Assembly (NCBI GenBank): GCA_035533295.1
Contig: DATLUA010000002.1
Location: forward strand, 11,323 to 75,322
Source: Elusimicrobiota bacterium
Lineage (GTDB): Bacteria > Elusimicrobiota > Elusimicrobia > UBA1565 > UBA9628
Direction of reading: 5' to 3'
Length of the DNA stretch: 64,000 bases
In this document: piece after piece, positions 23,691-57,131 of the stretch
Position numbering within the stretch: position 1 is the stretch's first letter
How the letters are laid out: each line of letters opens with the position of its first letter
Translations under genes and position numbers: made by a program
Notes under the pieces: generated by a model
What the model saw: the letters and a program-made list of their open reading frames with translations, nothing else
Database searches by the model: none
What the model was told of the DNA's origin: nothing

Positions 23691-24102
23691 AGTAGGTTCC
23701 CTCCTGGACGCGCTTCAAATAGTCGTGCCTATAACGCACCGCGACTTTCAAATGCTCCAAATCGGCCTTGGTCATCTGTTGAGAATGCTTGTGATAGGCG
23801 TTGGTGATGATCACCTTGGCCCCGGCCGTCGTGAAGTTGAAAAATCTCTCGTCCCGCGGCTTCAGCGCATAAATCTTGTTGGGGCGGTCCTCGATCCGGT
23901 AAAGCGTTTTCGGAAGCAAGGAGCCCGGCTTCGTTTCGCACAAGTATTGGATCATGTCGTCGAACCGGTCCTGGTCCATTTCGGCCAATCCAGCGTAATA
24001 TTCCCGAGCCGGCATTTTGCTCTCTATCGTGTAGAACCACTCCGCCGTCAAATAACGCCCCGGATGGATCAGGACGTCATCGTAGTCGGGATATTTGGCC
24101 AT
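23680..24102 (-). CDS. HigB/Gp49-like RelE-superfamily toxin (COG4679-like)
   Basis: ..LYRIEDRPNKIYALKPRDERFFNFTTAGAKVIITNAYHKHSQQMTKADLEHLKVA resembles the ..LLhgF.KKtqkTP..EI..A C-terminal signature. The start was set at MAKYPDYDD. Confidence 0.55.
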   Translation of the reverse strand: MAKYPDYDDVLIHPGRYLTAEWFYTIESKMPAREYYAGLAEMDQDRFDDMIQYLCETKPGSLLPKTLYRIEDRPNKIYALKPRDERFFNFTTAGAKVIITNAYHKHSQQMTKADLEHLKVAVRYRHDYLKRVQEGTYYEN

Positions 24103-24270
24103 TTCCGCTACTCGTAAGTTAACATATAAGTGAACGACTGTCAAGAGCCAACCGTTGCCCCAGAAAATCAACCTTGTCCACGACGTCCAGGGGCGGCGAA
24201 AGGCTAGGAAGGCCGCCGGTCGCGTTTTTGATGGGCGTACTTGGGATGAGAGGCCCCAGTTGGATTCGGC

Positions 24271-24951
24271 CTAACCATTCAAATCCAAGGCAGGTTTTAA
24301 GTTCCCCACCCGGAGATCGTTTAGAGCGCCCATGCGTTGTTTATGATCCTCCGCACTGAGAAAATCTTCTCTTAGAAGTAGGCGCAGAAAGTCTTCTACA
24401 GGGGTATCGTTCTTCCTGTTGTTGCATTGGCGGCAGGCCGCCACGACGTTTTTATAGCTGTTATTGCCTTCGGGTCTTGAAACTACATGTTCGATGACGT
24501 AGTTTTGAGGATTCAGCTTCCTAAGACAGTAGAAGCACTGATCATTTTCACGACTCAAAATAGCCTGACGATTTTGCGGGAGAAAAAAATCTATTTCCTC
24601 CAATACCGGTGGATTGCTTGCCGGCGATTTCGCCAGGATAACACCAGGTATTTCTGCGGGCAGCTTTAATCGAATTTTTCTTCCTTCGCGGGTTGAATCC
24701 AGAATTTCTATACAGCCCTTGGATTGCAGGGATTGCAGTTTTTCATAAGCAGTACTCTCAGACATTGGCTTGCCCTTTTCGCCAATTCCGCATGCCATAC
24801 GTTTTCTGGCCGATTTGAATCCGATTACAACTTCATCCAGACCAATCAGGCAGCTATGACGAAATATGTACAGATAAATTGCCTGCTCATAGGTGTCGAG
24901 CCTGGGGGCCAGAAAATCCTGAAACTCCTCAAGTATCTTTTTCAGTTCCAT
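24271..24951 (-). CDS. HNH endonuclease
   Basis: CFYCLRKL..NYVIEHVVSRPEGNNSYKNVVAACRQCNNRKNDTP HNH motif. It sits in markedly lower-GC DNA. Confidence 0.75.
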   Translation of the reverse strand: MELKKILEEFQDFLAPRLDTYEQAIYLYIFRHSCLIGLDEVVIGFKSARKRMACGIGEKGKPMSESTAYEKLQSLQSKGCIEILDSTREGRKIRLKLPAEIPGVILAKSPASNPPVLEEIDFFLPQNRQAILSRENDQCFYCLRKLNPQNYVIEHVVSRPEGNNSYKNVVAACRQCNNRKNDTPVEDFLRLLLREDFLSAEDHKQRMGALNDLRVGNLKPALDLNG

Positions 24952-25072
24952 CCGTTAATGATAACATTTTATAAAACTTCCCTTAGAAGGTCGAACGCTC
25001 GACGGATCGCTTCTTAATTCCGCTTGATGTCTTGCCTGAGAGAAGGTAATTCCTCTATAAAGGAGGTGAAAC

Positions 25073-25366
25073 ATGGGCACGCGAAAAATTGCGATCAGCC
25101 TCGATATTCCTATCTGTTGGAATCTGATCGCCAACGGCGAGAGGATCATCGAGCAAGCGGGACCGGACTCGGTCGACGTCGAGGTTCGCGAAGGTTCCAT
25201 CGACGGCGAGTCATGGCTTCAAGCGCTGTCGCGGCTATTGGATGAAGCGGAGGCGGAACTACGTCGCGTCGGGCGTCGCAGGCGTCGAGCAGTAGCAGAT
25301 TTCGATTCCCGTCGTTCACTCAACCGACGGCATCAAAAAACCACCGTGAAGCGAACAGGGCAGTAG
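25073..25366 (+). CDS. Hypothetical small protein (97 aa)
   Basis: Strong RBS AAGGAGGTG 5 nt upstream of the ATG (aaggaggtgaaacATG). No recognisable domain. Confidence 0.4.
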   Translation: MGTRKIAISLDIPICWNLIANGERIIEQAGPDSVDVEVREGSIDGESWLQALSRLLDEAEAELRRVGRRRRRAVADFDSRRSLNRRHQKTTVKRTGQ

Positions 25367-25424
25367 AGTAGACGAAAAACTGGGTTCGAATCGACATGCG
25401 CCGCGAAAATCACCGTCGTAGATG

Positions 25425-25515
25425 CCAAAAAAGCCGAAACGGCGCGTTTTATCGCACCATTTCGGCTTTTGGAACAACGGATTAAACTTATAAGAGCTGG
25501 CGGGGTCGACGGGAT
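25425..25515. repeat. Direct repeat copy B: tRNA-Asp 3' end plus its rho-independent terminator (AAAAGCCGAAA..TTTCGGCTTTTTT read on the minus strand)
   Basis: See copy A. On the minus strand the hairpin is followed by a T-run immediately downstream of the tRNA. Confidence 0.75.
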
Positions 25516-25575
25516 TTGAACCCGCGATCTCTGCCTTGACAGGGCAGCGTGTTAGGCCAGCTACACCACGACCCC
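25498..25575 (-). tRNA. tRNA-Asp (anticodon GTC), CCA encoded
   Basis: Reverse complement GGGGTCGTGGTGTAGCTGGCCTAACACGCTGCCCTGTCAAGGCAGAGATCGCGGGTTCAAATCCCGTCGACCCCGCCA folds with anticodon loop CTGTCAA. Confidence 0.85.
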
Positions 25576-25620
25576 AAAATTCGGGAAGCGCGCTATTCTA
25601 ACATTTTTCCTTTTTGATTG

Positions 25621-27144
25621 TCAGCGCGCGCCAGCCCCGCCCGGCGCCGCGAGGTATATTTTTCCATCCGGCTCCCGCACCAGAATCGGGGCGTAGAGCC
25701 CCAGGAGTTTTCGGTTCCACCAAGCGCCGGTTTTCCTCTTTTCGGCGGGCGACGAGAACCAGTAGCGCCAGACGACGGCGCGCACCGCGATCGGCGGCCC
25801 ATCCGCGAACGGATTGGCCTTAAAAAGATACAGCACGTCTTCATCCTGCTCCAGCAAGGCCTTTTCCACGCGCAGGACCCACGAGTATTGGCGCCAGCTT
25901 CCCAGCGAGGCAAACCACAAGTTCCAATCGAAGCGCGGCTGATAAGGAGCGTAAAGCCCCGGCGGTGTATTCACGTTCTGCGGCTTGTAGCGGAAGGGGT
26001 AGGGAGTCCAAGTCTTGCCGTCGCGCGCGCCTTGGAACTCGATTTCGTAGCGGGCCGTGGTCATCACCGCGAAAAGCCCGTAAGAATTGGCCACGCGCAG
26101 CGGCCCCAAGGCCTCGGCGGGCACAAGCGCCCAGGAGGGCAGGCGCGGAGCCAAAAGAGGAAACAAGACCAGCGTCGCGTAGAAAATCCAGGCCTGGGCA
26201 AAGCGCTTCAAGACCATCCCGGAACGCGCGTTCCATCCCGGCTCCGCCGCCGACTCGCCCGTCTTGGCCGCGCGCCACCCCAAGGACTTGAAGAACTGGT
26301 CATCCAAAAGCAGCACGCTCAACGAAAGCAGCATATAATTAAGGAAGGTGTAGTTGGCCGTCAGAAGGATGCCGACCTGGAACGCCGCCGTGACAAAAAA
26401 GCAGGCCAGCCGCAAGGGTCGGCCCAGAAAGGCGGCCCACACGAATACGTTTTCCATGATCAGCGTGGCCAGCGCCGTCCCTTCGTGAAAGCGGCGCGGC
26501 AGATACTGCTGGGCGTAATAGCCGATCCACGTGGGCAGCGGGCCGTTCTCGTAGTAATGCTCCATCGCGGTCAGGCGCCGCCACTGCGGATCGCCGGAGG
26601 CGAGCTTGGCCACGCCGGACTCGAAGTAAATGCGGAACCACTCCCACACGAGCAGAAACCGGCCGACCCCGTCGGGCGGATCGTTTTCCCCCAAGCCGGG
26701 CAGGAATCCCGCCGGAGCGAAAAGGAAGGACAGCAGACCCGCCTCCAGAAGCATGCCGTCCGATTGATAGGAGGAAAAATCGCCCGCGGCCGTGGCCAGC
26801 GACATATACATAACCTCGCAGACCAGCAGCATGGCCCTGGGCCAGACGTTCAAAAAAAGCAGCAGCGAAGCGGCAAGCCCGCAGCCGACCAGCACGGTCA
26901 AGGCCGCGTTGCCGCTGCCGATCCAAAGCAGGGACGGAACCTCCCAAATCCCGCGCCAGCCCGCATGCGATGCGGCCACGGCGCGCAGAAGCTCCTGCGC
27001 CGGCAGAATGCCGCGCGGACCCATCAAGCCCCGGACTTGAAACGCCCAAGAATAGAACGCCGAGAAGAAAATCGCCCCCATCGCCCGCATAAATATCCAC
27101 CGGGCGCAAAAATACGTGGCTTGGCCGCTCTTATCTTTTGACAT
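25621..27144 (-). CDS. Lipase maturation factor (LMF1-like) family polytopic membrane protein
   Basis: ..NTPPGLYAPYQPRFDWNLWFASLGSWRQYSWV..FKANPFADGPP..WRYWFSSPAEKRKTGAWWNRK matches the LMF1 C-terminal signature. Multiple N-terminal TM helices. Confidence 0.7.
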   Translation of the reverse strand: MSKDKSGQATYFCARWIFMRAMGAIFFSAFYSWAFQVRGLMGPRGILPAQELLRAVAASHAGWRGIWEVPSLLWIGSGNAALTVLVGCGLAASLLLFLNVWPRAMLLVCEVMYMSLATAAGDFSSYQSDGMLLEAGLLSFLFAPAGFLPGLGENDPPDGVGRFLLVWEWFRIYFESGVAKLASGDPQWRRLTAMEHYYENGPLPTWIGYYAQQYLPRRFHEGTALATLIMENVFVWAAFLGRPLRLACFFVTAAFQVGILLTANYTFLNYMLLSLSVLLLDDQFFKSLGWRAAKTGESAAEPGWNARSGMVLKRFAQAWIFYATLVLFPLLAPRLPSWALVPAEALGPLRVANSYGLFAVMTTARYEIEFQGARDGKTWTPYPFRYKPQNVNTPPGLYAPYQPRFDWNLWFASLGSWRQYSWVLRVEKALLEQDEDVLYLFKANPFADGPPIAVRAVVWRYWFSSPAEKRKTGAWWNRKLLGLYAPILVREPDGKIYLAAPGGAGAR

Positions 27145-46525: not shown

Positions 46526-49500
46526 CTAAGGATAGCGCCGCCGCCGGCGGGAAGCCGCGGCTTGGTACTGCAGGTGGAACTTCACCGCCTCCAGCGCGGC
46601 CTTGTTGATGAAGGGCCTTGGGTCCGTGAGCATCTTTTCGATTTTGGAGATGGGCCGGCCATTCTCATCGGTCTCGTTCTCCGCCAGGTAGCCCCGGATG
46701 CGGCCCGAGCGCGCCGCCATCTTGGCCCAGGCCTGCGCCGCCTCGTGCTGGGCGAGTTCGCCGTAGCCGGAAGAAACGCCGTCGAGAATCCGGAACACCA
46801 TGGCTTCGTCCTCCACCGCCGAGGACGCGGATACCGCGGACAGGACCATGACCAATTTGGCGACGTTCAAACTCCCGCTGACGGCCAAATAGTGGCCCAA
46901 ATGGCGGCGCAAGTCAGCTTCGGATCCCTCGAAAATGCGCCGGGTCGCCAAGAGTTTTTCCAAGGCCTGTCCCGCCGCGACGCCAAAAAACATGTGCTGC
47001 TCGACAGAGGAAAACCCGTCAATCATGTCTCGCATTTTTTTCGCGGCGGCTTCCGCGTCCCGATCGGAGCTCAAGTCTGCGGCGGCATAGAGCGCGAGCG
47101 CCTCGTCACGCTTCACCTCATGAGAGGAGTCGGCAGGCGGGGCCCCCCATGCGCCCCGCCCGCGCCATGATTGATAAAGTTCCTCCAAGCGTTTCGGAGC
47201 GACGCGCTGCAAATAGCGGTAGAGGACTTTCGCCCGCTCGGCCTGGGCGATGCCGGTGCTGATGGAGTAGCCGGCGCCGGTGACGCCGACCCAATCCTGC
47301 ATCAGCATTTCCTTGAATTCGGGCCCTCCCCAGCGCGCGGCCGCGAGAAAAAGCGCTTCTTTCTCCGTCGTCCGGTTTTGGCGCGCCGCTTGGTAACGGC
47401 GCATGAGCTCGGCTTGCTCCTCCCGCGTCTCGGGCTTCAAAAGCGCGGCCAGGGATTCCGCCAAGGCCAGCCTGAGCGGATTGTAATTATCCCCGCCGAT
47501 GCTGCTGTCTTCGGCTCGCCTGATGGCCTCGGTAACCAACCGCGCGTCTTCGGCCCCTGCGCCCGAACGGGCCAAAATGCCGGCCGCGGCGGCGGCCTCG
47601 GGGTAATACCGGTAAAGCGCGGCCATCTTATCGGAGGAAAGGATTTCCCTGGCCCACTCAACATCGTTTGGCGCGGCGGCGGCCAATGTTTCCGCCGCGG
47701 CGTAGCGCACGCCGGGGCTGCGGGTGTCCTCCTGCGCCAGAAGTCTTATGAGAAACTCCTTAAGTCCGCCCCTATCGTCATTGCTGGCGGGAAAATAAGA
47801 ACCCTTCGGCGTCGAGACCGCCCGAGTCTGGGGCGAGGATGCAGGAGCCTCGGCCGCGGCCGGTTGGCTCTTGAGCAGGATCAAGACCTCGGGAGAAACC
47901 CGCACCTCGGTTCCAGGTTCCGCGGCCAGCTCCAGGGCGAACTGGGCGGCCGCCCGCTCATCGGGGAACGCCACGCCATGATAATGGGGGCCGTCTTTTT
48001 CGCGCACCCAATAGTCCGGCCGGCGGCCGAAGCGCGCGACGATGCGATCGTAATTCTCCGAGGATCCCGTCTGCTCTCCGAAATTAAACAGCACGATTTC
48101 CGCCCTGTCGGCGGGATTCCAAGCCGAATCATGCGGGACGAAGACGGCGATTTTATCCGTGCCGCGCCGCAGGCTGCGCATCAATCCGGGATGGATCAGA
48201 ACCTTGGAAACGCCTTCCGCGCGAATCAGCGCCAGCACGGCGCGCACGGCGGCGCCTGTATCCGGCGCCGAGCCCTTAAGAGTGAACCGCGGGCTGACAT
48301 TGGACGTTTCGCGCATGAAAATGGAGAGGCCGGCGCGGCGCGCCAAATCTTCCACCTCCCTCTTTTTTGAAGCATCATCGCTCAAAACCAAAATAGTGTT
48401 CTCCGCCGTTATATCCGCGGATTCAGAAATCTTTCCCGCGTTCTCAGGGAAAAGAACGGATGGCGCGTCATGGGCATCGGCGGGAGCCGGGAGCGCCGGA
48501 ATCCCGTTGTCCGAACTGGGATTGACGACTCGGGCGTAGACCTCCGGGTGCACGGCCACGGCTGAAATCGCGGCGGAAGCGGCCAGGGCCAGCGCCAAAC
48601 GCGCCGCGTCCCGCGCGCCCGCCAAGGTCGCGAAAGCCTGGTAGGAGGACGGCGCGCCGTGGCGCATCGTCATCACGGGCACGCCGCCAAATCCCGCGGC
48701 CCCAAGCGCCGCGTTCAAGGCCGCGCGCGCGTCGGCGGCGGAAGCGGCGGAGACGAACACGCGGCCTGCGGAAGCCCGCGGGTGGAGAACCGTGTCGAAG
48801 GCCGCCACCTTGGATGCCGGAGAAGACGCCCCGGCGCCGGGCTGCGCCTGCGGCTCCGAAGCATGGCCCTCTTGAGCGGACGTCGAAAAAGAGGAGCCTT
48901 CCGTTCCGGCGTCTGAGTTATCAGCCGCAGGCGGCTCGCTGGACGGCCCGTTTCCAGGAACCTCGATCCAAATGGCAGCTTCTTTTCCCTCGACGAATCG
49001 CGGCAAAACGCCCGTTTCGGGCGAAGGCGCGTTCGGGTCGATGCCGGCTCGCGCTCCGGCCTCATAAAAAATCCGTCCGCCGCCGGCCCTGAAATTATGG
49101 CCCACCACGGTCTGGGGGGCGAAGGCGGCTTTAAGCCGCCGAACGGCCTCCGGAGAAAGAACCCGCGCCGGCGCCCGGATCCGGATCAGGATGCGCCCGG
49201 AACCCATCCGCCAATTCACGTCGATGCTCCGCCCCTCTTCAATTAAGGACTTAATGATAAGAATCGTTTCGCGGTAGGCTTGAGCCGCGGCCAAGCGCTG
49301 GAAGCGCGGCAAGCCGGAACGTCCGGAGTCCTCCCCGTAGGACTGCAGAGCCGCCGTTTCGCTCTCCGAATTCCCGTTGACTATTTCGACGGTCTTCCCG
49401 GGGCCGTTCCACCCAAAGGGAAAATTCTCCGGCATGGGCAGGACCGCGTCCGGGACTTCGTCCTGCGCCGCTTGGGCGGGAGGCTCCTGCGGGTCGCGCA

Positions 49501-51007
49501 CGCGCTCCGCGATCACGTCCGCCAGAGACTTGGCGACTCGGATGTAGGCGATTTCCTTTTGGCGCAGGAGCGCGATGGTTTTTTCCGCGGCCGCCTCAAG
49601 GGAGGAGAATAAATCCGGCGTGGCGACGCGCTCGCTTTGGATAACCGCCGGTTTCCCGATGCCGAAACGTTCCAGAAACGACCGGATGGAATCGGCCGAT
49701 AACGGATCGGCGAAATGGATGTTGACGCTTTTTTCTTCCGTCACGGCGGGGCGAACTCTCAAGCGGCGCAAGAGTTCTTCGGAAAGAGGCATCGGCTCCG
49801 ATGGAGCTAAATCAAGGCGCCGCTCGATGAGCGGCCTCAAGGCGGCGGGAACCTCCAAGCGGGTCAGATGGGGATCGTCAAGCAATTCCAGCGCCCTCTT
49901 GATGGCCGCCTCCCGGTTCGACATGAAAAAATACAGGCGCGGCTCATTGACGTTTTTGCCCCCCCAGCGAGCGAGGTCCTCCTGGGTGCTGAATTGCGCG
50001 TCCAGGCGGTTGCCGGAAAGTTCTTCCTTGACCGCGAGCCGATCCGCCATCAAGATCGGCGGCACGGCCTCGGCCGCCGCGCCCTCATCCGCCGCCGGTG
50101 TTTTTGAAACGGGCGCCTTGGGAAAGGACGGCACGACATCCGGATGAACCGCCACGGAGGAGATAATGTCCAGCCCCGCCAAAGCCACGGCCGCTTTGGC
50201 GGCCTCTTCGGCGTTCTTGAAGTCGATAAACGCCCCGCCGGAACGCAGGTAGGCCGGCGCCGCCGGCAGATTAAGCTTAAGAAGGGCGGCGCCGAGGGCT
50301 TCGCGATCCGCGCCATAAACCCGCAGCCGCCCGGGCAGGCTCTTGGGAGGCGTCAAAGAATCCGCGAGCCTTATTTTGGGCGGCACCGCGCCGATGGAAA
50401 TCGCCTCCGCCAAGGACATTCGAGTTCCCCATGCCGCGGCGGCTTGGCCGATTCCGATTCTAATCCGGTCTTCTTTATGTTGCGCAAGCCTTCTCTCCAG
50501 CGCCGCTATTTTTTCACGTTGCGGCGCGCTCAGCAAAGCTTCGTACAGCTTGAGCCGGCTTAAGGACTTTTCCAGGCCGGCCGCGTTTGCTTTCGCGATT
50601 TTCTCCGGCTCCGAAGCCAATATCCTATCCGCGCTGCGGCGTTCTTGCGCGGCTTTTCGCGTCAACGCTTCCAAAGCGTTCCGGCGGGCGCCCTCGGCCT
50701 CCGGCGCGCTCCCCTCCGCCTTGAGGACCGGGGCCACGGCTTGAGCCAGTTGCGGCGAGAGGCCCCCCGCGCACGAAAGCCCTTCCAAGAGATCACCCGC
50801 GTCCATGCCGTTGAACATCATGCCTTGGCTTTGGGAAATGATTTCAGGAGAAATCAGGGCCGGAACGGCCCCTTCGGCGGAAGAACCTTCCACGGGAGCG
50901 ACTTCCGCGGCCAAGGCGGCGTAAACGCCGGCGCCCGGCGACGCCAGCACGAGGCCCGCGCTCAAAAACAGCGAGAGAGCCCGGATTGCCCGGCTATCTC
51001 GATTCAT
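46526..51007 (-). CDS. Giant secreted Ala-rich protein (1493 aa), no recognised catalytic domain; N-terminal signal region similar to (apparently paralogous with) the upstream giant gene; internal repeated ..AVHP(D/E)V.. modules
   Basis: Intact 4.5-kb ORF starting MNRDSRAIRALSLFLSAGLVLASPGAGVYAALAAE. Overlaps the upstream giant ORF by 14 nt. Confidence 0.65.
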   Translation of the reverse strand: MNRDSRAIRALSLFLSAGLVLASPGAGVYAALAAEVAPVEGSSAEGAVPALISPEIISQSQGMMFNGMDAGDLLEGLSCAGGLSPQLAQAVAPVLKAEGSAPEAEGARRNALEALTRKAAQERRSADRILASEPEKIAKANAAGLEKSLSRLKLYEALLSAPQREKIAALERRLAQHKEDRIRIGIGQAAAAWGTRMSLAEAISIGAVPPKIRLADSLTPPKSLPGRLRVYGADREALGAALLKLNLPAAPAYLRSGGAFIDFKNAEEAAKAAVALAGLDIISSVAVHPDVVPSFPKAPVSKTPAADEGAAAEAVPPILMADRLAVKEELSGNRLDAQFSTQEDLARWGGKNVNEPRLYFFMSNREAAIKRALELLDDPHLTRLEVPAALRPLIERRLDLAPSEPMPLSEELLRRLRVRPAVTEEKSVNIHFADPLSADSIRSFLERFGIGKPAVIQSERVATPDLFSSLEAAAEKTIALLRQKEIAYIRVAKSLADVIAERVRDPQEPPAQAAQDEVPDAVLPMPENFPFGWNGPGKTVEIVNGNSESETAALQSYGEDSGRSGLPRFQRLAAAQAYRETILIIKSLIEEGRSIDVNWRMGSGRILIRIRAPARVLSPEAVRRLKAAFAPQTVVGHNFRAGGGRIFYEAGARAGIDPNAPSPETGVLPRFVEGKEAAIWIEVPGNGPSSEPPAADNSDAGTEGSSFSTSAQEGHASEPQAQPGAGASSPASKVAAFDTVLHPRASAGRVFVSAASAADARAALNAALGAAGFGGVPVMTMRHGAPSSYQAFATLAGARDAARLALALAASAAISAVAVHPEVYARVVNPSSDNGIPALPAPADAHDAPSVLFPENAGKISESADITAENTILVLSDDASKKREVEDLARRAGLSIFMRETSNVSPRFTLKGSAPDTGAAVRAVLALIRAEGVSKVLIHPGLMRSLRRGTDKIAVFVPHDSAWNPADRAEIVLFNFGEQTGSSENYDRIVARFGRRPDYWVREKDGPHYHGVAFPDERAAAQFALELAAEPGTEVRVSPEVLILLKSQPAAAEAPASSPQTRAVSTPKGSYFPASNDDRGGLKEFLIRLLAQEDTRSPGVRYAAAETLAAAAPNDVEWAREILSSDKMAALYRYYPEAAAAAGILARSGAGAEDARLVTEAIRRAEDSSIGGDNYNPLRLALAESLAALLKPETREEQAELMRRYQAARQNRTTEKEALFLAAARWGGPEFKEMLMQDWVGVTGAGYSISTGIAQAERAKVLYRYLQRVAPKRLEELYQSWRGRGAWGAPPADSSHEVKRDEALALYAAADLSSDRDAEAAAKKMRDMIDGFSSVEQHMFFGVAAGQALEKLLATRRIFEGSEADLRRHLGHYLAVSGSLNVAKLVMVLSAVSASSAVEDEAMVFRILDGVSSGYGELAQHEAAQAWAKMAARSGRIRGYLAENETDENGRPISKIEKMLTDPRPFINKAALEAVKFHLQYQAAASRRRRRYP

Positions 51008-54000
51008 GCGCCGCGGGATTGGGGATCTCGATCCAATAATCGGTTCCGGAAGCGCCCGTCGAATAACCGAGGCGCGCGCCGGGAATGGATGAGAGAACGC
51101 GGTAGAGCTCGAAGAAGAGGCGGCTCGAGCTGTCCTGCTTCAAGATATTGCCGCCCTCCGCGCGATCCAGAGACTCCTGGGCGCTGGCTGGAACGCGGCC
51201 GGTGAAGTGCGCGCGCAGAAACGCCGCTTCCGATTCGCTCAAGGAGCCGTTTGCGTGAATCGCGACCGCGGCCGATTGCGGATCAATCCGATAGCGGACT
51301 TGGAGCGCGCTATTCCGGCCGCCGGCGGCTTGGCGAAGGAACACCTTGAGCCATCCTTCATAGGACTCTATTTCTGAGGGCACGGACCGCAGCAGGGCGT
51401 CTTGGACGCTTTCGGGGTAATGCTCGCGTTCGAGCGCCTCCTTGATTTGCCGCGCGGCGCCCAAGCGAAATTCCTTGGCGGTTTCCTGATCGCCTTGGAG
51501 GATTACCGGATCTTGCGCGCTCATATTTGGCGCTTGGTTCTGCGCCAGCAAAGAATCCGCCTGCGGTTGCGTCGGGACGGCGAGCGCCGCGGCGGCCGTT
51601 TCGCTCTTTTCTTCGGAAGCCGCCGGAGGAGCCGCAGGCGCCGCCTCATCCGCCGCGGGATGGCTCTTGATTTCATCCAGTATCCACCGATCCAGAATTT
51701 CCCGGGTCAGGCCCATCTCGGCGTCTTCCTCGACCGCCTGTTCCACGAGAGTCACCAAACGATCGAATATTTCGCGGCTCATCGCCTCGGCGGGAGGATT
51801 CTTGACCGCAGGCTTCACGGGCAAGGGCTCCACAGCCACGTTGATTTTGCCTTTTTGGACGCTTAAGCGGATGAGCTTGGGCCCGGGCTGGGCTCCGCCT
51901 TTCGCGGCCGATTCCAGGATTTCGCGGGAAATGGGCGACTCCACCAGATTCTTGATGGCGTTGCGCAGCGGCCGCGCGCCTTTGTCCACGCTGTAGCCTT
52001 CGTGGACGAGAAGCTTGACCACCTCGGGAGTCCACTCCAATTCATTGCCCCTCTGGCCTACTTTGCGGCGAACCTTCTGCAATTCCAGCGGCGCGATTTT
52101 TTCCATCATCGCCATGGTCATGGGGTTAAAAACGATGGGATCGTACTGCAGGCGCCCGCGGAACTCGGGCGGGAACATCCCGGTCATGGCCTCGTTGGTC
52201 GCGGCGACGGCCTTCTCCCGGATTTCGCGCGCCATCCGGACGCCGAACTCGGAAAGCTGGGCCTCCACATCGGCGCGCCGGGACGCGTCTGCTTCCGACG
52301 CGTCCCACTGCGCCTTCAGCACCGCGTAGGCTTTTTCATAGGGCCCTAAATCAAGGCTCATCATGCCCACGTTGGAGCTCATGAGCACGATGGTGTTCTT
52401 GAAGCTCACGGTCCGCCCGTGGCCGTCGGTCAGGCGGCCGTCGGCCAAGACCTGCAGCAGGATAAGCCACGCCGCCGGGTTGGCCTTCTCGATTTCGTCG
52501 AACAAAACCACGCTGTAGGGATGCTTGCGGACCGCTTCGGTCAGAGTCCCGCCCTGTTCGAAGCCCACGTAGCCCGGAGGCGCGCCCGTCATCTTGGCGA
52601 CCTCGTGCGGCTGCATGTACTCGGACATGTCCAGACGAATCATGGCGTTCTCGCTGCCGAAAAGAAAATCCGCGAGCTTCTTGGCGAAATAGGTCTTGCC
52701 CGTGCCGGTGGGACCGGTCAGCAAAAAGACGCCGATGGGCTCGTCCTCGGAGTCGTGCATGCCGGACTTGCTGCGGCGCACGGCGTCCGAAATCACGTGG
52801 ACCGCCTCTTCCTGGCCCACCACGATTTTATTCAAGGACTGCTCCATCTCGACGTACTTGTGCATGTCCTCGCGGCCCAACGTCAGCTGGTTGGTCGCGA
52901 CGCCGGTCTCTTCGACGATTTTTTCGTTGACCTGCTGTTCGTCGACGTTGGGGATGCCATCGGTTGGAATGGCTTGACGTTGGCGATAGAGCGTCACCAA
53001 ATCTTCGACCAGCCTTGCCGCGGCATTCTCCAAATCAATGACGCTGGGCACTTCGTCTGCGTCTTCCTCGGCGGCGGCGCCGGATTCGGCCTGGAACAGC
53101 TTGGCCTTTTCTTCCTCCAGGCGCTTAAACGCATATTCCAGTTCGCTCATCTTGTCCTGGATGGCCAAGGAAAGGCGATCGCGGCGGCTCTGGAAATCGG
53201 CGACCCGCAGCGCCTCGATGAGATAATGGAAGGCCCGTCCTGGTAAAAAAATCTCGCTATCTACATGAGAGTTCTCAGCCGCGGCCTTGAGCGCGGACGG
53301 TTCAATTTTTACTCCGTAGCGCCGCTCATAATACGCCCGCGATTCCTGCAGCGCGCGCAGGGACTGCGTCTCGTCATATTCCGGCACCTCGACGGCTTTC
53401 AAGCGGCGCTTGATGGCTTCGTCGGGCCGAATGTACTTGTCGTACTCCTCTCTGGTGGTGCCGCCCACGATGACGACATCGCCGCGCTCCAAGGGTTTTT
53501 TAAGCAGATTCTTGATCCGGGTGCCGTACTGCGTATCCTGGAAAAAAGTATGCACCTCGTCGATGACCAGGACCACCTTGGCCCCACGGCCGCGCTGCAA
53601 GGCGTTGAATTTCGCCAGGATGCGGAGCAGATTGGAAAGAATCGCCGTGGAATTGTCCTGTGCCACGCGGTCCAGGATTTGGTTTGGATCCAGAGATAAG
53701 AAATAGCGATCGTCCAACGTAGAGAGGCGAAAGGTGCCGCCCTCGCCTTCCTGCTGCCGCGAGATCCCGACCGCCTGAATCATCTTCCGGAGAACCGCGG
53801 TCTTGCCCACGCCCGCCTTGCCCACCAGCACCACGCCGTTGGCGTCGCCGGACGGCGAGGCGATGACGGGAACCATCTTGTTCATCTCCTCGAGCCTTCC
53901 GATGACGGGAGTCTCGTCGGGAACAATCTCTTCGAGCACGCGCTGGCCGAACATGGCCGTCAGAAATTTCTTGTCTTCGCGAGAGAGATCCACCGCCGGG

Positions 54001-56285
54001 TCTTCGGCGGCCTCAAGAAAAGGTTTTAGCGGCGGGCGCGCGGAGGCGGCGGCCGGAGCCGAAGAATCCTCGATGGAGCCGAGAAGGAGCCCCAGCGGCG
54101 ACGCGGCAGCCAAGACCGCGTGCGCGCCCAGAAGATGCGGCAGCGCCAAGCCGCCCAGCGCCGCCACGGCGATGAGGCCCAGCACCGTTCCGGCCTTCTT
54201 GGCGGCTTGCTCGCCCTGGGAACCGCCAGTCCGGGCGTCCTGGCCTTTGCGCTTTTCCGTGCGCCAGCGCGACCAAATGTCGCGGCCATCCCAGCGCTGT
54301 TCCATCCAGCGGCGCAGTTCCGCCAGCCTGGCCCGGCCGTCCTGGCTTTCGAAAAGTTTTTGGCGGATGCTTTGGACGTCATCGTCAGGCAGCCCGCGCG
54401 AGTCCGCGTGCAGGGCCTCGGCGGCGCGGCCGATGAACGCATCCTGGAAGCGGTTCCATTTCTCATCGTTGGAAAGCGAATCGAAGCCCTCGGAGCCAAT
54501 AACCTCATCCATCAAGTCGCCGTCCAGGACCTCGGCCATGATGTTCTCGAAGCGCTCGCTGTCGACCTCCGAGCGCAACTCGCCCTTTTCCGCCAAGTCC
54601 GACGCCCAGCGCGCCCAGCCGCCCAGGACGCCGCGCAGGGACTTGACCGCCTCCTCGTTCTGGACCTTCTCGTAGATGCAGTAGTACGCTTGGCTGCAGG
54701 CCAAGGCGATGCCGACCACCGGCAGGCCCAGCCAGAAATAACCGGCCAGGGAAGCGGCCGAAAACGCCGCGAAGCCGAGCCCCCAAGTCAGGCGCTGGAC
54801 GCGGCGCGGAGAAAAGCCGTGGCGGGAAAGCCACGCCAGCGGATTCGCCGGACCTTCGTAGAGCCGCCGGAAAATGCCCTGATAAGCTCCGCTGGGCAGT
54901 TCCGGATTACGCGTCCACGCGAAACGGTAGGCGCGGGTCGGCCACCAACGGATGCCGATCTTGAATCCGTCCGCGTGCGGCAGCGGCGCCAAAAGATTGA
55001 AGGCAGCCAAGGCCAGGTTGACCACGGCCGCGGCCTCGAGCGCGGAGGCCGCCAAGCCTCCGGCGGCGATAACGCCAGTCGAGACCAACGCTAAGCGAAC
55101 ACCCCAGGCCAGCGCCGCCGTGGCGGCGTTCGCCGCGGGCCCGGCTAAGGCGACCTTGGCCGCGTCCCGCTTGGGATCGGCCAGCTTGTTGTAATCGACC
55201 GGGATAGGCTTGGCCCAGCCCAGCAGCAGCGGAACGTGAAGGAAAGTGGAGCTTGCGACAAGGCTCAAGAAAGGCAGCAGGACGGTGCCCCAAGGATCGA
55301 TGTGCTTGAAAGGGTTCAAGCTTCCCTGGCCGAAGCGGCGGGCCGTATCGTCTCCCAAGCGGCGAGCCATGTATAAATGGCCCGTCTCATGGAGAAGAAT
55401 GCCGGACATCAGCGCCGCGCCGTAAAGGACGGCGCCGAGGCTCAGGGCCGCGCCGTGGGTCAGGAAGAGCGCCGCGGCGCCGCCGACCACGGCGGCCGCG
55501 CTCAAAAGCCGGCGCCAGCGGCCTGGGCCATTGATGGAAATTTTTCGCGCCAAACTTCCAAAGGCCGCACGCCGCGGCGCCGGAATCTCCGTATCGCGCT
55601 GGACACCGGAAGCGCCCGCGGACTCAAGAAGCCCGGACGGAAGGCCTCGCGCCGCGTCGGCGCCGGTTTCAACGCCCGCCGGGGCCGCTTTGCCCCAAAG
55701 CCGGCGCGCTTGGGCCACCAAGCCCTGCGCCTGCCTCGCCTTCATGCCGGCCAAACTCTTTTGGGCGGTGCCCAATTTTTCCAGACTCGGGGCGTTCAAG
55801 AAATCCCGGTAGGCGTTCGCCTGAGCGACGGCTCGCTCGAAACTGGAAGTGTCGTCAGTCTGTTTTGCTTGCAGCGCCAGCGCGGGCAGAGCCTCGGCCT
55901 GCGCGCGGGCACGCGCGGCGATCTTAGCCAGTTGCGCCACGGCGGCCGGGGCCTGCTCCCGGGAAGTCCCTGCGGCTTGAACGCCGCGCAGGATGTCCGC
56001 CTCTTCCGGGGTCAGCGACGGCGCGCGCTCAAGGCCGGAAAGCAGCTCGGGAATATTGACGCCGCCAATATTTTCAGAGAACGCGCCCTGGGGCAGAACG
56101 GCGTTGCCCAGCGAAGAAATAGGCGGAAGAGAAAGATTCGCGGGAGCCTCGGCTCCGGTCTCGGGGGCTTCAAAGCCCGCGGCCAGGACGCCGTAGCAGC
56201 CCAGGCCGGGAGACACCAAAACGAGCGAGGATGAAAGCCCCAGGGCCAGAATCTTGACCGCCAGGCGGCGCGACGCAATCTCCAT
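50994..56285 (-). CDS. Giant multidomain protein (about 1760 aa): signal peptide + Ala-rich N-terminal region + YwhC-like M50 (site-2-protease family, COG1994) membrane metalloprotease domain + ClpA/ClpB-like double AAA+ ATPase (D1+D2) + about 380-aa C-terminal extension
   Basis: LLHETGHLYMARRLGDDTARRFGQGSLNPFKHIDPWGTVLLPFLSL..LLGWAKPIPVD (M50/YwhC signature). D1: VLVGKAGVGKT..VVLVIDEVHTF. D2: VGQEEAV..LLTGPTGTGKT..RLDMSEYM..GAPPGYVGFEQGGTLTEAV..VVLFDEIEKA..LQVLADGRLTDGHGRTVSFKNT. The start was set at the Met at 56285 (MEIASRRLAVKIL..). Confidence 0.75.
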   Translation of the reverse strand: MEIASRRLAVKILALGLSSSLVLVSPGLGCYGVLAAGFEAPETGAEAPANLSLPPISSLGNAVLPQGAFSENIGGVNIPELLSGLERAPSLTPEEADILRGVQAAGTSREQAPAAVAQLAKIAARARAQAEALPALALQAKQTDDTSSFERAVAQANAYRDFLNAPSLEKLGTAQKSLAGMKARQAQGLVAQARRLWGKAAPAGVETGADAARGLPSGLLESAGASGVQRDTEIPAPRRAAFGSLARKISINGPGRWRRLLSAAAVVGGAAALFLTHGAALSLGAVLYGAALMSGILLHETGHLYMARRLGDDTARRFGQGSLNPFKHIDPWGTVLLPFLSLVASSTFLHVPLLLGWAKPIPVDYNKLADPKRDAAKVALAGPAANAATAALAWGVRLALVSTGVIAAGGLAASALEAAAVVNLALAAFNLLAPLPHADGFKIGIRWWPTRAYRFAWTRNPELPSGAYQGIFRRLYEGPANPLAWLSRHGFSPRRVQRLTWGLGFAAFSAASLAGYFWLGLPVVGIALACSQAYYCIYEKVQNEEAVKSLRGVLGGWARWASDLAEKGELRSEVDSERFENIMAEVLDGDLMDEVIGSEGFDSLSNDEKWNRFQDAFIGRAAEALHADSRGLPDDDVQSIRQKLFESQDGRARLAELRRWMEQRWDGRDIWSRWRTEKRKGQDARTGGSQGEQAAKKAGTVLGLIAVAALGGLALPHLLGAHAVLAAASPLGLLLGSIEDSSAPAAASARPPLKPFLEAAEDPAVDLSREDKKFLTAMFGQRVLEEIVPDETPVIGRLEEMNKMVPVIASPSGDANGVVLVGKAGVGKTAVLRKMIQAVGISRQQEGEGGTFRLSTLDDRYFLSLDPNQILDRVAQDNSTAILSNLLRILAKFNALQRGRGAKVVLVIDEVHTFFQDTQYGTRIKNLLKKPLERGDVVIVGGTTREEYDKYIRPDEAIKRRLKAVEVPEYDETQSLRALQESRAYYERRYGVKIEPSALKAAAENSHVDSEIFLPGRAFHYLIEALRVADFQSRRDRLSLAIQDKMSELEYAFKRLEEEKAKLFQAESGAAAEEDADEVPSVIDLENAAARLVEDLVTLYRQRQAIPTDGIPNVDEQQVNEKIVEETGVATNQLTLGREDMHKYVEMEQSLNKIVVGQEEAVHVISDAVRRSKSGMHDSEDEPIGVFLLTGPTGTGKTYFAKKLADFLFGSENAMIRLDMSEYMQPHEVAKMTGAPPGYVGFEQGGTLTEAVRKHPYSVVLFDEIEKANPAAWLILLQVLADGRLTDGHGRTVSFKNTIVLMSSNVGMMSLDLGPYEKAYAVLKAQWDASEADASRRADVEAQLSEFGVRMAREIREKAVAATNEAMTGMFPPEFRGRLQYDPIVFNPMTMAMMEKIAPLELQKVRRKVGQRGNELEWTPEVVKLLVHEGYSVDKGARPLRNAIKNLVESPISREILESAAKGGAQPGPKLIRLSVQKGKINVAVEPLPVKPAVKNPPAEAMSREIFDRLVTLVEQAVEEDAEMGLTREILDRWILDEIKSHPAADEAAPAAPPAASEEKSETAAAALAVPTQPQADSLLAQNQAPNMSAQDPVILQGDQETAKEFRLGAARQIKEALEREHYPESVQDALLRSVPSEIESYEGWLKVFLRQAAGGRNSALQVRYRIDPQSAAVAIHANGSLSESEAAFLRAHFTGRVPASAQESLDRAEGGNILKQDSSSRLFFELYRVLSSIPGARLGYSTGASGTDYWIEIPNPAAHESR

Positions 56286-56858: not shown

Positions 56859-57131
56859 TCAGCTCAGGTGCTTGCTGACCAGCTTGGTCATCTCGAACAT
56901 ATTAACGGTCGACCGGCCGCCGAAAACGGCCTTCAGGTTCTCGTCCGCGTTGATGTTGCGCTTGTTCTTGGCGTCTTGAAGCTTGTGCTTTTTGATGTAC
57001 TCCCAGAGCTTCTTGACCACCTGGGTCCTCGGCAGCGGCTTGGTGCCGACGATTTTGGCCAAAGTGGGGCTAATCGTGAGTTCTTTCATGAATGCGGCGT
57101 TGGCGGCTCTAGGCATTTTGCTCTTCTCCAT
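56859..57131 (-). CDS. SWIB/MDM2 domain protein
   Basis: ..LAKIVGTKPLPRTQVVKKLWEYIKKHKLQDAKNKRNINADENLKAVFGG..VNMFEMTKLVSKHL is the canonical SWIB fold sequence. Confidence 0.8.
   Translation of the reverse strand: MEKSKMPRAANAAFMKELTISPTLAKIVGTKPLPRTQVVKKLWEYIKKHKLQDAKNKRNINADENLKAVFGGRSTVNMFEMTKLVSKHLS

Follow-up and report, generated by a model that had tools for sequence, protein, structure and literature searches.

A Site-2-Protease-Like M50 Domain Joined to an Hsp100-Type Double AAA+ Module in Elusimicrobiota: Predicted Topology and a Conflict at the N-Terminus

Introduction

Site-2 proteases (S2Ps) and Hsp100 unfoldases have both been studied in depth and are known to act in turn on the same substrates in stress signalling, where they are separate proteins. 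Substrates of Hsp100 proteins enter at the N-domain/D1 face and leave at D2, as seen in structures of ClpB, Hsp104, and ClpA, and the N-terminus of the S2P RseP, which precedes the helix with the HExxH motif, is periplasmic. The present study deals with a minus-strand gene in a 64,000-nucleotide stretch of an Elusimicrobiota genome (assembly GCA_035533295.1, contig DATLUA010000002.1, positions 11,323 to 75,322; hereafter the window, with positions counted from its first letter). The predicted product of this gene, referred to below as the giant protein, unites an M50 domain of the S2P type and a double AAA+ module of the Hsp100 type in one polypeptide.

A catalytic core of three helices is common to all S2Ps (PMC10202637). 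SpoIVFB and MjS2P have six transmembrane (TM) helices, of which TM2 and TM3 are connected by a reentrant loop; their CBS domain is cytosolic, water reaches them from the cytoplasmic side, and the active site opens to the cytoplasm in all solved S2Ps (PMC11486902). The pro-sequence of an S2P substrate, visualized by cryo-electron microscopy, spans the bilayer beside the HExxH motif with its N-terminus outside and the protein body in the cytoplasm (PMC11486902). In the sigma-E pathway, ClpXP degrades the RseA fragment that is released after cleavage by RseP, as stated in a passage of PMC9042235.

Results and Discussion

Gene Identity and Domain Composition

We consider it somewhat probable that the giant protein is a machine of the inner membrane that is mostly cytoplasmic and in which a six-helix M50 module resembling SpoIVFB and MjS2P, a hydrophobic hairpin, and a cytoplasmic unfoldase are combined for a “cut and pull” function. 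The underlying open reading frame (ORF) extends without interruption from 56411 to 50994, and its start codon is most plausibly the ATG at 56285, which yields a protein of 1763 amino acids (aa) beginning with MEIASRRLAVKILALGLSSSLVLVSPGLGCYGVLAAGFEAPE. Hydrophobic segments were found at aa 8–37, 259–299, 333–357, 388–436, 503–537, and 697–738. An identical protein occurs on several contigs in public data from metagenome-assembled genomes (MAGs), labelled “AAA family ATPase [Elusimicrobiota bacterium]”. A scan of 185,579 species genomes with a trimmed alignment (A3) covering the region from M50 to the linker domain behind it identified the same architecture at 51 loci, all but three of which are titled Elusimicrobia or Elusimicrobiota (the remaining three just “bacterium”), and which include assemblies with contigs of 3.1 and 3.8 Mb. 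The ORFs at these loci are mostly 2400–3365 aa long, with the window protein as a short form. When aa 1–790 were compared exhaustively with 1.84 billion representatives by HMMER, 3224 proteins reached E ≤ 1e-10. The family, helical linker domain included, is made up of the 18 that reached E ≤ 1e-30, and among the matches listed below them nearly all were stand-alone M50 proteins of ~215 aa that are 40–50% identical to aa ~285–455. A homolog search with a 91-aa M50 query returned four fragments only, and one with aa 253–742 yielded no match at all, the protein's own entry included.

Since relatives of the same architecture exist at 51 loci, the gene is a real and conserved one, neither a misassembly nor a chance ORF. 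Small stand-alone M50 genes are very common, and one of them might have been joined to a clpB-like gene by an error of assembly or gene calling, but there is next to no probability left for such an artefact, which is already refuted by the lack of any interruption in the ORF, the identical protein on several independent contigs, and the 51 loci in many MAGs. In full-text literature searches no description of an M50-AAA+/Hsp100 fusion was found, and public annotation is restricted to “AAA family ATPase”.

Pfam recognized Peptidase_M50 (PF02163) at aa 291–443 with 32.9 bits (gathering cut-off 27.2). The HETGH motif at aa 299–303 (55377–55391) ends an uncharged stretch of 39 aa, and its H, E, and H do not vary within the family alignment. 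NLLAPLPHADG at aa 430–440 has a one-residue insertion compared to NLLPLPxLDG in the homologs, with invariant N, P, D, and G, and an AGPAAN motif is located at aa 381. No PDB entry was matched by the sequence of the M50 region; only fold comparison worked, and it assigned the region to the S2P fold. By motifs, Pfam threshold, and fold the giant protein is a member of the M50/S2P family, and proteolytic activity is predicted.

Further downstream, Pfam detected a first AAA module at approximately aa 794–970, AAA_2 at aa 1183–1380 (E 2.8e-51), and ClpB_D2-small at aa 1390–1463 (58.4 bits, cut-off 21.9). Walker A is found at aa 822 and 1191, Walker B at 905 and 1259, GAPPGYVG at 1234–1241, PEFRGR at 1373, and GARPL at 1436; Walker A/B, the GYVG pore loop, and sensor-2 are all intact. 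Among PDB entries, ClpB (E 1.4e-95) and ClpC match the C-terminal 983 aa best, and the partial NCBIfam matches to ClpB, ClpA, and ClpV remain far under the equivalog cut-offs (395.9 vs. 1232.1 bits for ClpB TIGR03346). D2 contains an insert of ~65 aa where ClpA and ClpC hold the ClpP-binding loop, and inspection of P0004, P0005, P0006, and P0008 by eye, without a formal test, showed no conserved [ILV]-G-[FL] ClpP-docking tripeptide. In Pfam the protein gave no match to Clp_N, CBS, or PDZ domains; M41 was not matched either, and two Hsp100-type modules are present instead of the single AAA module of FtsH. Judged by these profiles, the protein belongs to the Hsp100 class and is not a ClpB, ClpA, ClpC, ClpV, or FtsH. 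The claim of the original prediction that an intramembrane M50 protease is covalently joined to an unfoldase that requires the cytoplasm is supported.

The C-terminal domain (Table 1) has no Pfam or PDB match. A degenerate histidine-kinase ATPase fold was considered for it and dropped, since profile searches against the PDB and Pfam gave nothing in its favour. The reading frame of locus L012 (CBDIQC010000001.1) is broken at the Walker A of D1, at ~aa 780–800 of the ORF (“...APRGVIVRRRRRQGRHRGG...”), which suggests a frameshift or a pseudogene; the same genome has a second copy (L018) of 1144 aa without AAA+.

The Hydrophobic Segment between the M50 and AAA+ Modules

The strongly hydrophobic segment that had been reported between M50 and AAA+ does exist. 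The peptide quoted for it, GTVLGLIAVAALGGLALPHLLGAHAVLAAA, corresponds to aa 699–728 and is part of an uncharged hydrophobic stretch of 42 aa (aa 697–738). The sidedness problem that it was thought to create disappears when homologs are considered. In every homolog that has the segment it is 34–50 aa long and bipartite, consisting of a Gly-rich helix of ~18–20 aa, a turn (LPH, GPH, or FP[DE]), and another Gly-rich helix of ~20–25 aa. A hydropathy scan found no hydrophobic segment after S7, the last helix of the M50 module, in the otherwise collinear orthologs L032, L040, L047, L049, and L053, and the same was seen by eye for L026, L035, L036, L037, and L038. Orthologs without the segment retain the domains on either side, including the linker domain in front (for example L040, “...KLKDAMKSADKENSQGGGGAKFSALKSFLSAPSIGDAPGVSAPVD...”), so that these flanking domains must be in one compartment, and the loss of the segment without any other change makes an odd number of membrane crossings impossible. 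From this comparison, aa 697–738 most likely form a helical hairpin or a non-spanning anchor. AlphaFold2 (AF2) draws two helices there with a predicted local distance difference test (pLDDT) score <50; the hairpin conclusion is based on the comparative evidence and not on this model.

A single pass, which would leave the linker domain in the periplasm and only the AAA+ part in the cytoplasm, is very unlikely. A stretch of 42 aa could form one long or tilted helix, and the AF2 confidence is low as stated, but this reading is already contradicted by the at least five orthologs in which the segment is missing while linker domain and AAA+ are still contiguous, and by the Pro or charged turn that divides the segment where it is present. 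Moreover, the linker domain follows directly after S7, and the loop before S6 is rich in lysine and arginine (K/R).

Between the segment and the C-terminus no member has a hydrophobic segment, apart from one weak peak in L036. Since none follows and the flagged segment itself appears to be non-crossing, the chain from the linker domain to the C-terminus would share the compartment of the ATPase, and the intact ATP-site residues argue that this is the cytoplasm. The topology of the C-terminal two-thirds is well supported. The linker domain, for which no Pfam, PDB, or fold match was obtained, is conserved across the family and also in P0008, a relative without the M50 catalytic core.

Topology of the M50 Module

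The uncharged stretch preceding the HE of HExxH comprises 35–43 aa in all but two (L010 and L028) of 47 family members and contains a conserved Pro 17 residues before HE. In 112 stand-alone relatives of ~215 aa, which start directly at S2, this stretch has 17 aa and HExxH begins at residue 23 (median). The N-tail of these proteins has 0.49 K/R vs. 1.04 aspartate or glutamate (D/E), a charge distribution that marks them as probably N-out, whereas the 15 aa before the S1 stretch of the family have 3.1 K/R vs. 0.8 D/E (family mean). Because the stand-alone relatives start at S2 with only 17 uncharged residues before HE, S1 appears to be an added helix, and its N-flank would be cytoplasmic as in TM1 of SpoIVFB.

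The loop after the LDG helix is K/R-rich in the window protein (Table 1) and in the family (mean 9.9), as are the loops that follow HExxH or flank S3. The S4/S5, S1/S2, and S6/S7 connections are short turns, the latter two without any charged residue. S6 is preceded by a loop and S7 followed by the linker domain, both predicted to be cytoplasmic, so S6/S7 would form a hairpin, which may correspond to TM5/TM6 of SpoIVFB and MjS2P. Overall, the M50 module would consist of six helices and a reentrant region; its two ends and its active site presumably face the cytoplasm, an orientation that agrees with that of all solved S2Ps (PMC11486902). Hydrophobicity, charge bias, and comparative parity support the count of six; AF2 confidence is low at S1 and S6/S7, and the signal-like N-terminus conflicts with it.

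A conserved Cys pair (C..Y.C, “CSQAYYC”; aa 530–536, 54678–54698, minus strand) is located at the cytoplasmic end of S7 and is invariant in family alignment A3. It could be a metal or redox site; P0008 keeps only the first Cys.

Table 1. Predicted features of the giant protein and its downstream partner in the window.
Feature	Residues (aa)	Position in window	Strand	Basis or remark
Whole gene, M50/S2P and ClpB/ClpC-like double AAA+	1763 in total	50994..56285	minus	ORF, Pfam, NCBIfam
Signal-peptide-like N-terminus	1–37	56175..56285	minus	basic n-region, hydrophobic core, SPG turn, small-x-small (VLA/AG)
N-domain, ends with GPGRWRR just before S1	38–258	55512..56174	minus	AF2: helical at aa 78–197, otherwise disordered
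S1, extra TM helix before the HExxH helix	259–277	55455..55511	minus	probably in to out
S2, HETGH helix	280–303	55377..55448	minus	probably out to in
S3, hydrophobic helix between LNPFKHIDPWGT and GWAKPIPVDYN	331–356	55218..55295	minus	both flanks K/R-rich; placed by S2P-core parity (PMC10202637, PMC11486902)
S4, AGPxxN-motif helix	371–402	55080..55175	minus	probably in to out
S5, NLLAPLPHADG helix, supplying the predicted third zinc ligand Asp	411–440	54966..55055	minus	probably out to in
Conserved K/R-rich loop (W..NP.LP..YQ....LYEGPAN), predicted cytoplasmic	441–502	54780..54965	minus	11 K/R
S6/S7 helical hairpin, invariant Pro turn and conserved Cys pair C530/C536	503–537	54675..54779	minus	flanks probably cytoplasmic
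All-helical linker domain at the position of the SpoIVFB CBS domain	538–696	54198..54674	minus	pLDDT 80–95
S8/S9 Gly-rich helical hairpin (TVLGLIAVAALGGLAL-PH-LLGAHAVLAAASPLGLLLGSI)	697–738	54072..54197	minus	homolog comparison
AAA+ D1, Walker A GKAGVGKT, Walker B VLVIDEV	790–1030	53196..53918	minus	Pfam, NCBIfam, PDB alignment, motifs
Two long helices between D1 and D2 (short middle domain)	1031–1110	52956..53195	minus	AF2 helices 1034–1066 and 1082–1104
AAA+ D2 (AAA_2) and ClpB_D2-small; GPTGTGKT, VVLFDEI, GAPPGYVG, PEFRGR, GARPL	1140–1463	51897..52868	minus	
Conserved C-terminal domain (GWLK...HFxG...DLYR.LS.IPGA...YWIEIP)	1464–1763	50997..51896	minus	
Downstream partner ORF	1493 in total	46526..51007	minus	ATG 14 nucleotides before the stop codon of the giant gene

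Proposed Mechanism

In the favoured inner-membrane arrangement, S1 would lead from inside to outside and S2 with HExxH back inside, S3 would be reentrant, S4 would again lead outside and S5 (NxxPxxxxDG) inside, and the S6/S7 hairpin would follow. The helical linker domain would replace the CBS domain of SpoIVFB, the S8/S9 hairpin would do no more than re-anchor the chain, and the double AAA+ unfoldase of the ClpB/ClpC type would then be cytoplasmic. The membrane module would thereby take the place of the Hsp100 N-domain at the substrate-entry face of D1, and a hexameric ring would be suspended from six S2P modules, facing the membrane with its entry side and pulling polypeptide away from it. 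The S2P domain would clip a membrane-embedded segment, whereupon the hexameric ATPase would extract or unfold the cytoplasmic part. The position of the membrane module at the D1 entry face is what suggests “cut and pull”, which is the most likely function as far as domain order can indicate it. Pulling away from the membrane would fit the order “cut, then pull” of RseP and ClpXP, and not an FtsH-like feeding of substrate into the protease. The covalent fusion at 51 Elusimicrobiota MAG loci would then amount to a natural experiment on how intramembrane cleavage and ATP-driven extraction can be coupled.

Several observations speak against this arrangement or the function derived from it. The gene neighbourhood is conserved only among the three closest genomes and gave no functional lead, the sole exceptions being the partner ORF and a LonC-like gene that abuts a P0004 homolog. 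D1 lacks the KYRGEFE pore-loop tyrosine, with “ldrvaqdnstail” at this place of the ClpB alignment. S3 is regarded as reentrant on parity alone. The AF2 models, which were built from shallow alignments of 12–13 sequences, have pLDDT <50 for S1, S6/S7, and S8/S9, and the second of them draws S1 and S2 as one long helix. To these points the properties of the N-terminus have to be added.

The N-Terminus and the Sidedness of the N-Domain

The N-terminus had been described as looking like a cleavable signal peptide, and this impression is strengthened by the homologs. Every family member with its N-terminus on the contig has the n/h/c pattern of such peptides, with a basic n-region (+2 to +6), an uncharged stretch of 21–27 aa that includes a Pro/Gly turn and a hydrophobic core of 12–17 aa, and a small-x-small (A-x-A) site followed by Q or A (“...SPGSLPYQALA/AS”, “...GPAGRAYA/QTF”, “...MPVAA/QSF”, with a slash at the end of the site). 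Signal peptides of ordinary exported neighbours are similar, though shorter. By standard rules the N-terminus would be a Sec signal for signal peptidase I and would place the N-domain, which has no Pfam match, in the periplasm.

Opposed to this are four independent observations on the rest of the architecture. The N-domain would be on the ATPase side because S1 exists and has a K/R-rich N-flank, and because the M50 core including S1 has an even number of passes. Two related proteins lead to the same conclusion. P0008 has the same N-terminus and N-domain and is without S1–S5; S6/S7, the linker domain (hhalign probability 93%, E 2.4e-7), S8/S9, and AAA+ are retained, so that its ATPase is cytoplasmic only if its N-domain is; the genome encoding P0008 also has M50-containing copies. 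Likewise, export of the product of the partner ORF would separate its C-terminal module from the compartment of the homologs of this module. A second TM segment inside the N-domain, which would restore parity, is missing in the window protein, and some other members have weak Pro-rich peaks there. The conflict is real. We give the parity evidence somewhat more weight than the signal-peptide likeness, and parity makes it more likely that the N-terminus is a membrane tether or a pro-sequence than an export signal for the N-domain. The large periplasmic N-terminal domain of the original prediction is hence doubtful, with S1, the K/R bias, P0008, and the partner ORF on one side and only the signal-like sequence on the other.

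An alternative along the lines of the original prediction, which we regard as possible, if doubtful, is that the N-terminus is a cleaved Sec signal after all and that the N-domain of ~220 aa is periplasmic, perhaps as a sensor. S1 would then be non-crossing, or S1 and S2 would form a single pass, leading to an RseP-like N-out core and still to a cytoplasmic AAA+ part, since the hairpins S6/S7 and S8/S9 do not change the side. The textbook n/h/c pattern with A-x-A, its maintenance across the family, and its resemblance to other signal peptides in these genomes favour this alternative, as do the N-out orientation of the stand-alone relatives, the continuous S1/S2 helix in AF2 model 2, and the periplasmic N-terminus of RseP itself. 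It would however require that S1, with its 15–21 uncharged and non-amphipathic residues preceded by ~3 K/R, lies outside the bilayer, and the N-out relatives have no S1 altogether. The ATPase of P0008 would end up outside if the two hydrophobic segments of this protein are hairpins as in the family, and the partner ORF would be wholly periplasmic, yet its C-terminal module is fused to a cytoplasmic ATPase in relatives.

Only if everything were exported, with a working signal peptide, an inverted M50 module, and AAA+ outside the cytoplasm or in another cell, would signal peptide, helix parity, P0008, and partner ORF agree without special pleading. This is nevertheless extremely unlikely: the periplasm contains no ATP, yet the residues of Walker A/B, the pore loop, and the sensor are all preserved; four loops with ~25 K/R in total would need to cross the membrane; and an inverted module would be at odds with all solved S2Ps, which open to the cytoplasm (PMC11486902). 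Besides, the titles of the MAGs (e.g., groundwater) and the contigs of 3.1 and 3.8 Mb suggest free-living organisms.

Returning to the tether or pro-sequence suggested by parity, S2P substrates that are cytoplasmic and have a hydrophobic segment at the N-terminus are already known, given the arrangement of the pro-sequence in the cryo-electron microscopy structure mentioned above. A tentative and rather improbable extension is that the N-terminus does not serve export at all and that the giant protein, the translationally coupled partner ORF, and M50-less paralogs such as P0008 are all held at the membrane by this N-terminus and are then released, activated, or extracted by intramembrane cleavage and the AAA+ motor. 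If true, S2P and Hsp100 would make up a self-contained, ATP-driven “tether, cut and pull” system. The n-regions of the family are K/R-rich, in contrast to pro-sigma-K, which argues against a simple transfer of that picture. The family in any case provides a sharp test for topology prediction, as a Sec-like signal is present on proteins whose remaining architecture says that the following part stays cytoplasmic, and resolving the conflict could reveal a new type of S2P substrate signal or an S2P core that carries an unsuspected periplasmic domain.

Other interpretations of the N-terminus were rejected. A short reentrant hairpin (h17-SPG-h10) was ruled out by the single uncharged stretch of 21–27 aa in most members, a twin-arginine translocation (Tat) signal (SRRLAVK in the window protein) by the lack of a twin arginine in most members, and a lipobox (LGC, aa 28–30) because it is neither the canonical L-[AS]-[GA]-C nor conserved. 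The N-domains of L015, L018, L044, P0006, and others have repeated GPRWV motifs; “IPTPEAARRV...PLWVK” is conserved just before S1 in many relatives, of which the window protein keeps only GPGRWRR; and very long uncharged stretches rich in Ala, Pro, Ser, and Leu follow the signal-like segment in some cases (up to ~85 aa in L041).

Partner ORF, Architectural Variants, and Genomic Context

The product of the partner ORF (Table 1) is paralogous at aa 7–194 to the signal-like N-terminus and N-domain of the giant protein (BLASTP E 4e-9), the shared N-terminal part amounting to 198 aa. It has no convincing TM segment and no Pfam or NCBIfam match. A module of ~430 aa at its C-terminus has homologs at the C-terminal end of longer fused relatives, and in L010, L042, L013, L014, L025, and L054 this module is fused behind AAA+ (E 5e-28 to 3e-11) with no hydrophobic segment between. 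The partner ORF looks like the split-off C-terminal half of an ancestral giant gene. Orthologs of it occur in the two closest genomes (L008, 79% identical, and L006/L007). It further comprises about six units of ~80 aa ending in “V.VHP/IHP/VSP”, and similar-looking units are seen in the inserts of long relatives. A phmmer search gave no significant match, and the likeness was not used in any argument. Alpha/beta units of this kind (~80 aa) seem to make up the 600–1100-aa inserts of long members, and in the L019 ORF aa 1018–1087, within the insert between hairpin and D1, have a sub-threshold Pfam similarity to Fervidolysin_NPro-like, a subtilase pro-domain (E 0.0015, 19.3 bits, cut-off 21).

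Two proteins illustrate the range of architectures. P0012 (1175 aa) has the shared N-terminus, M50, approximately three further helices, and a subtilase S8 domain, and is without AAA+. P0008 (1970 aa; L005, 10001–15913) has AAA+, the linker domain, and both hairpins, and is without the M50 catalytic core.

At L003 (6707–10000, plus strand), the gene for a LonC-like protease of 1097 aa (AAA_32, LonB_AAA-LID, Lon_C) is situated upstream of the P0004 homolog and ends exactly at the start of the giant gene. This protease has a signal-like hydrophobic N-terminus (MRQVKGFLGRSFSVVLALAMAFPGG), and its Walker A (GPEDSGRQS) has a degenerate look. In the window, a small SWIB-domain protein (PF02201) and a TRL-domain lipoprotein are encoded immediately upstream of the giant gene (~56860–57120, minus strand; L001, 9170–9427); SWIB domains are not known to be common in bacteria outside a few lineages. 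The G + C content of positions 24001–26000 is 0.52, as compared to ~0.63 elsewhere in the window.

Comparison with Known Systems

In its predicted topology the giant protein is most similar to the group III S2Ps SpoIVFB and MjS2P. It differs from these by having an unrelated helical domain in place of the CBS domain, by a core that is closer in sequence to stand-alone M50 proteins of ~215 aa without S1, and by ~1000–2800 further residues in the family, which include a complete Hsp100-type ATPase.

The likeness to anti-sigma-factor S2Ps such as RseP, which had been part of the original prediction, holds in outline and fails in topology. In the RseP and ClpXP pathway, a membrane cut by an S2P is likewise followed by the action of an AAA+ unfoldase on the released cytoplasmic fragment, as described in the passage of PMC9042235 referred to above, and the giant protein has both activities predicted in one polypeptide. 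However, it has no PDZ domain, its topology would match SpoIVFB and MjS2P and not RseP, and its ATPase resembles ClpB and ClpC rather than ClpX. Neither a ClpP-docking loop nor a peptidase partner was seen for it, and no anti-sigma or sigma gene is located nearby.

With ClpB, Hsp104, ClpC, and ClpV the protein shares two AAA+ modules, a short coiled-coil middle region, the GYVG pore loop of D2, and D2-small. In contrast to these it has a membrane module in place of Clp_N, no pore-loop tyrosine in D1, the insert of ~65 aa in D2, and a C-terminal addition of ~300 aa.

FtsH is comparable as a membrane-anchored, presumably hexameric AAA+ protein joined to a zinc metalloprotease, and a role in the turnover of membrane proteins would be plausible for the giant protein as well. 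The protease parts are not homologous, though: the M41 protease of FtsH is soluble and lies beyond the ATPase ring, whereas the M50 domain of the giant protein is predicted to lie within the membrane, where substrate would enter a double-ring Hsp100, and the two systems probably differ in whether cutting or pulling comes first. The giant protein would represent a membrane AAA+ metalloprotease of a second kind, built independently of FtsH.

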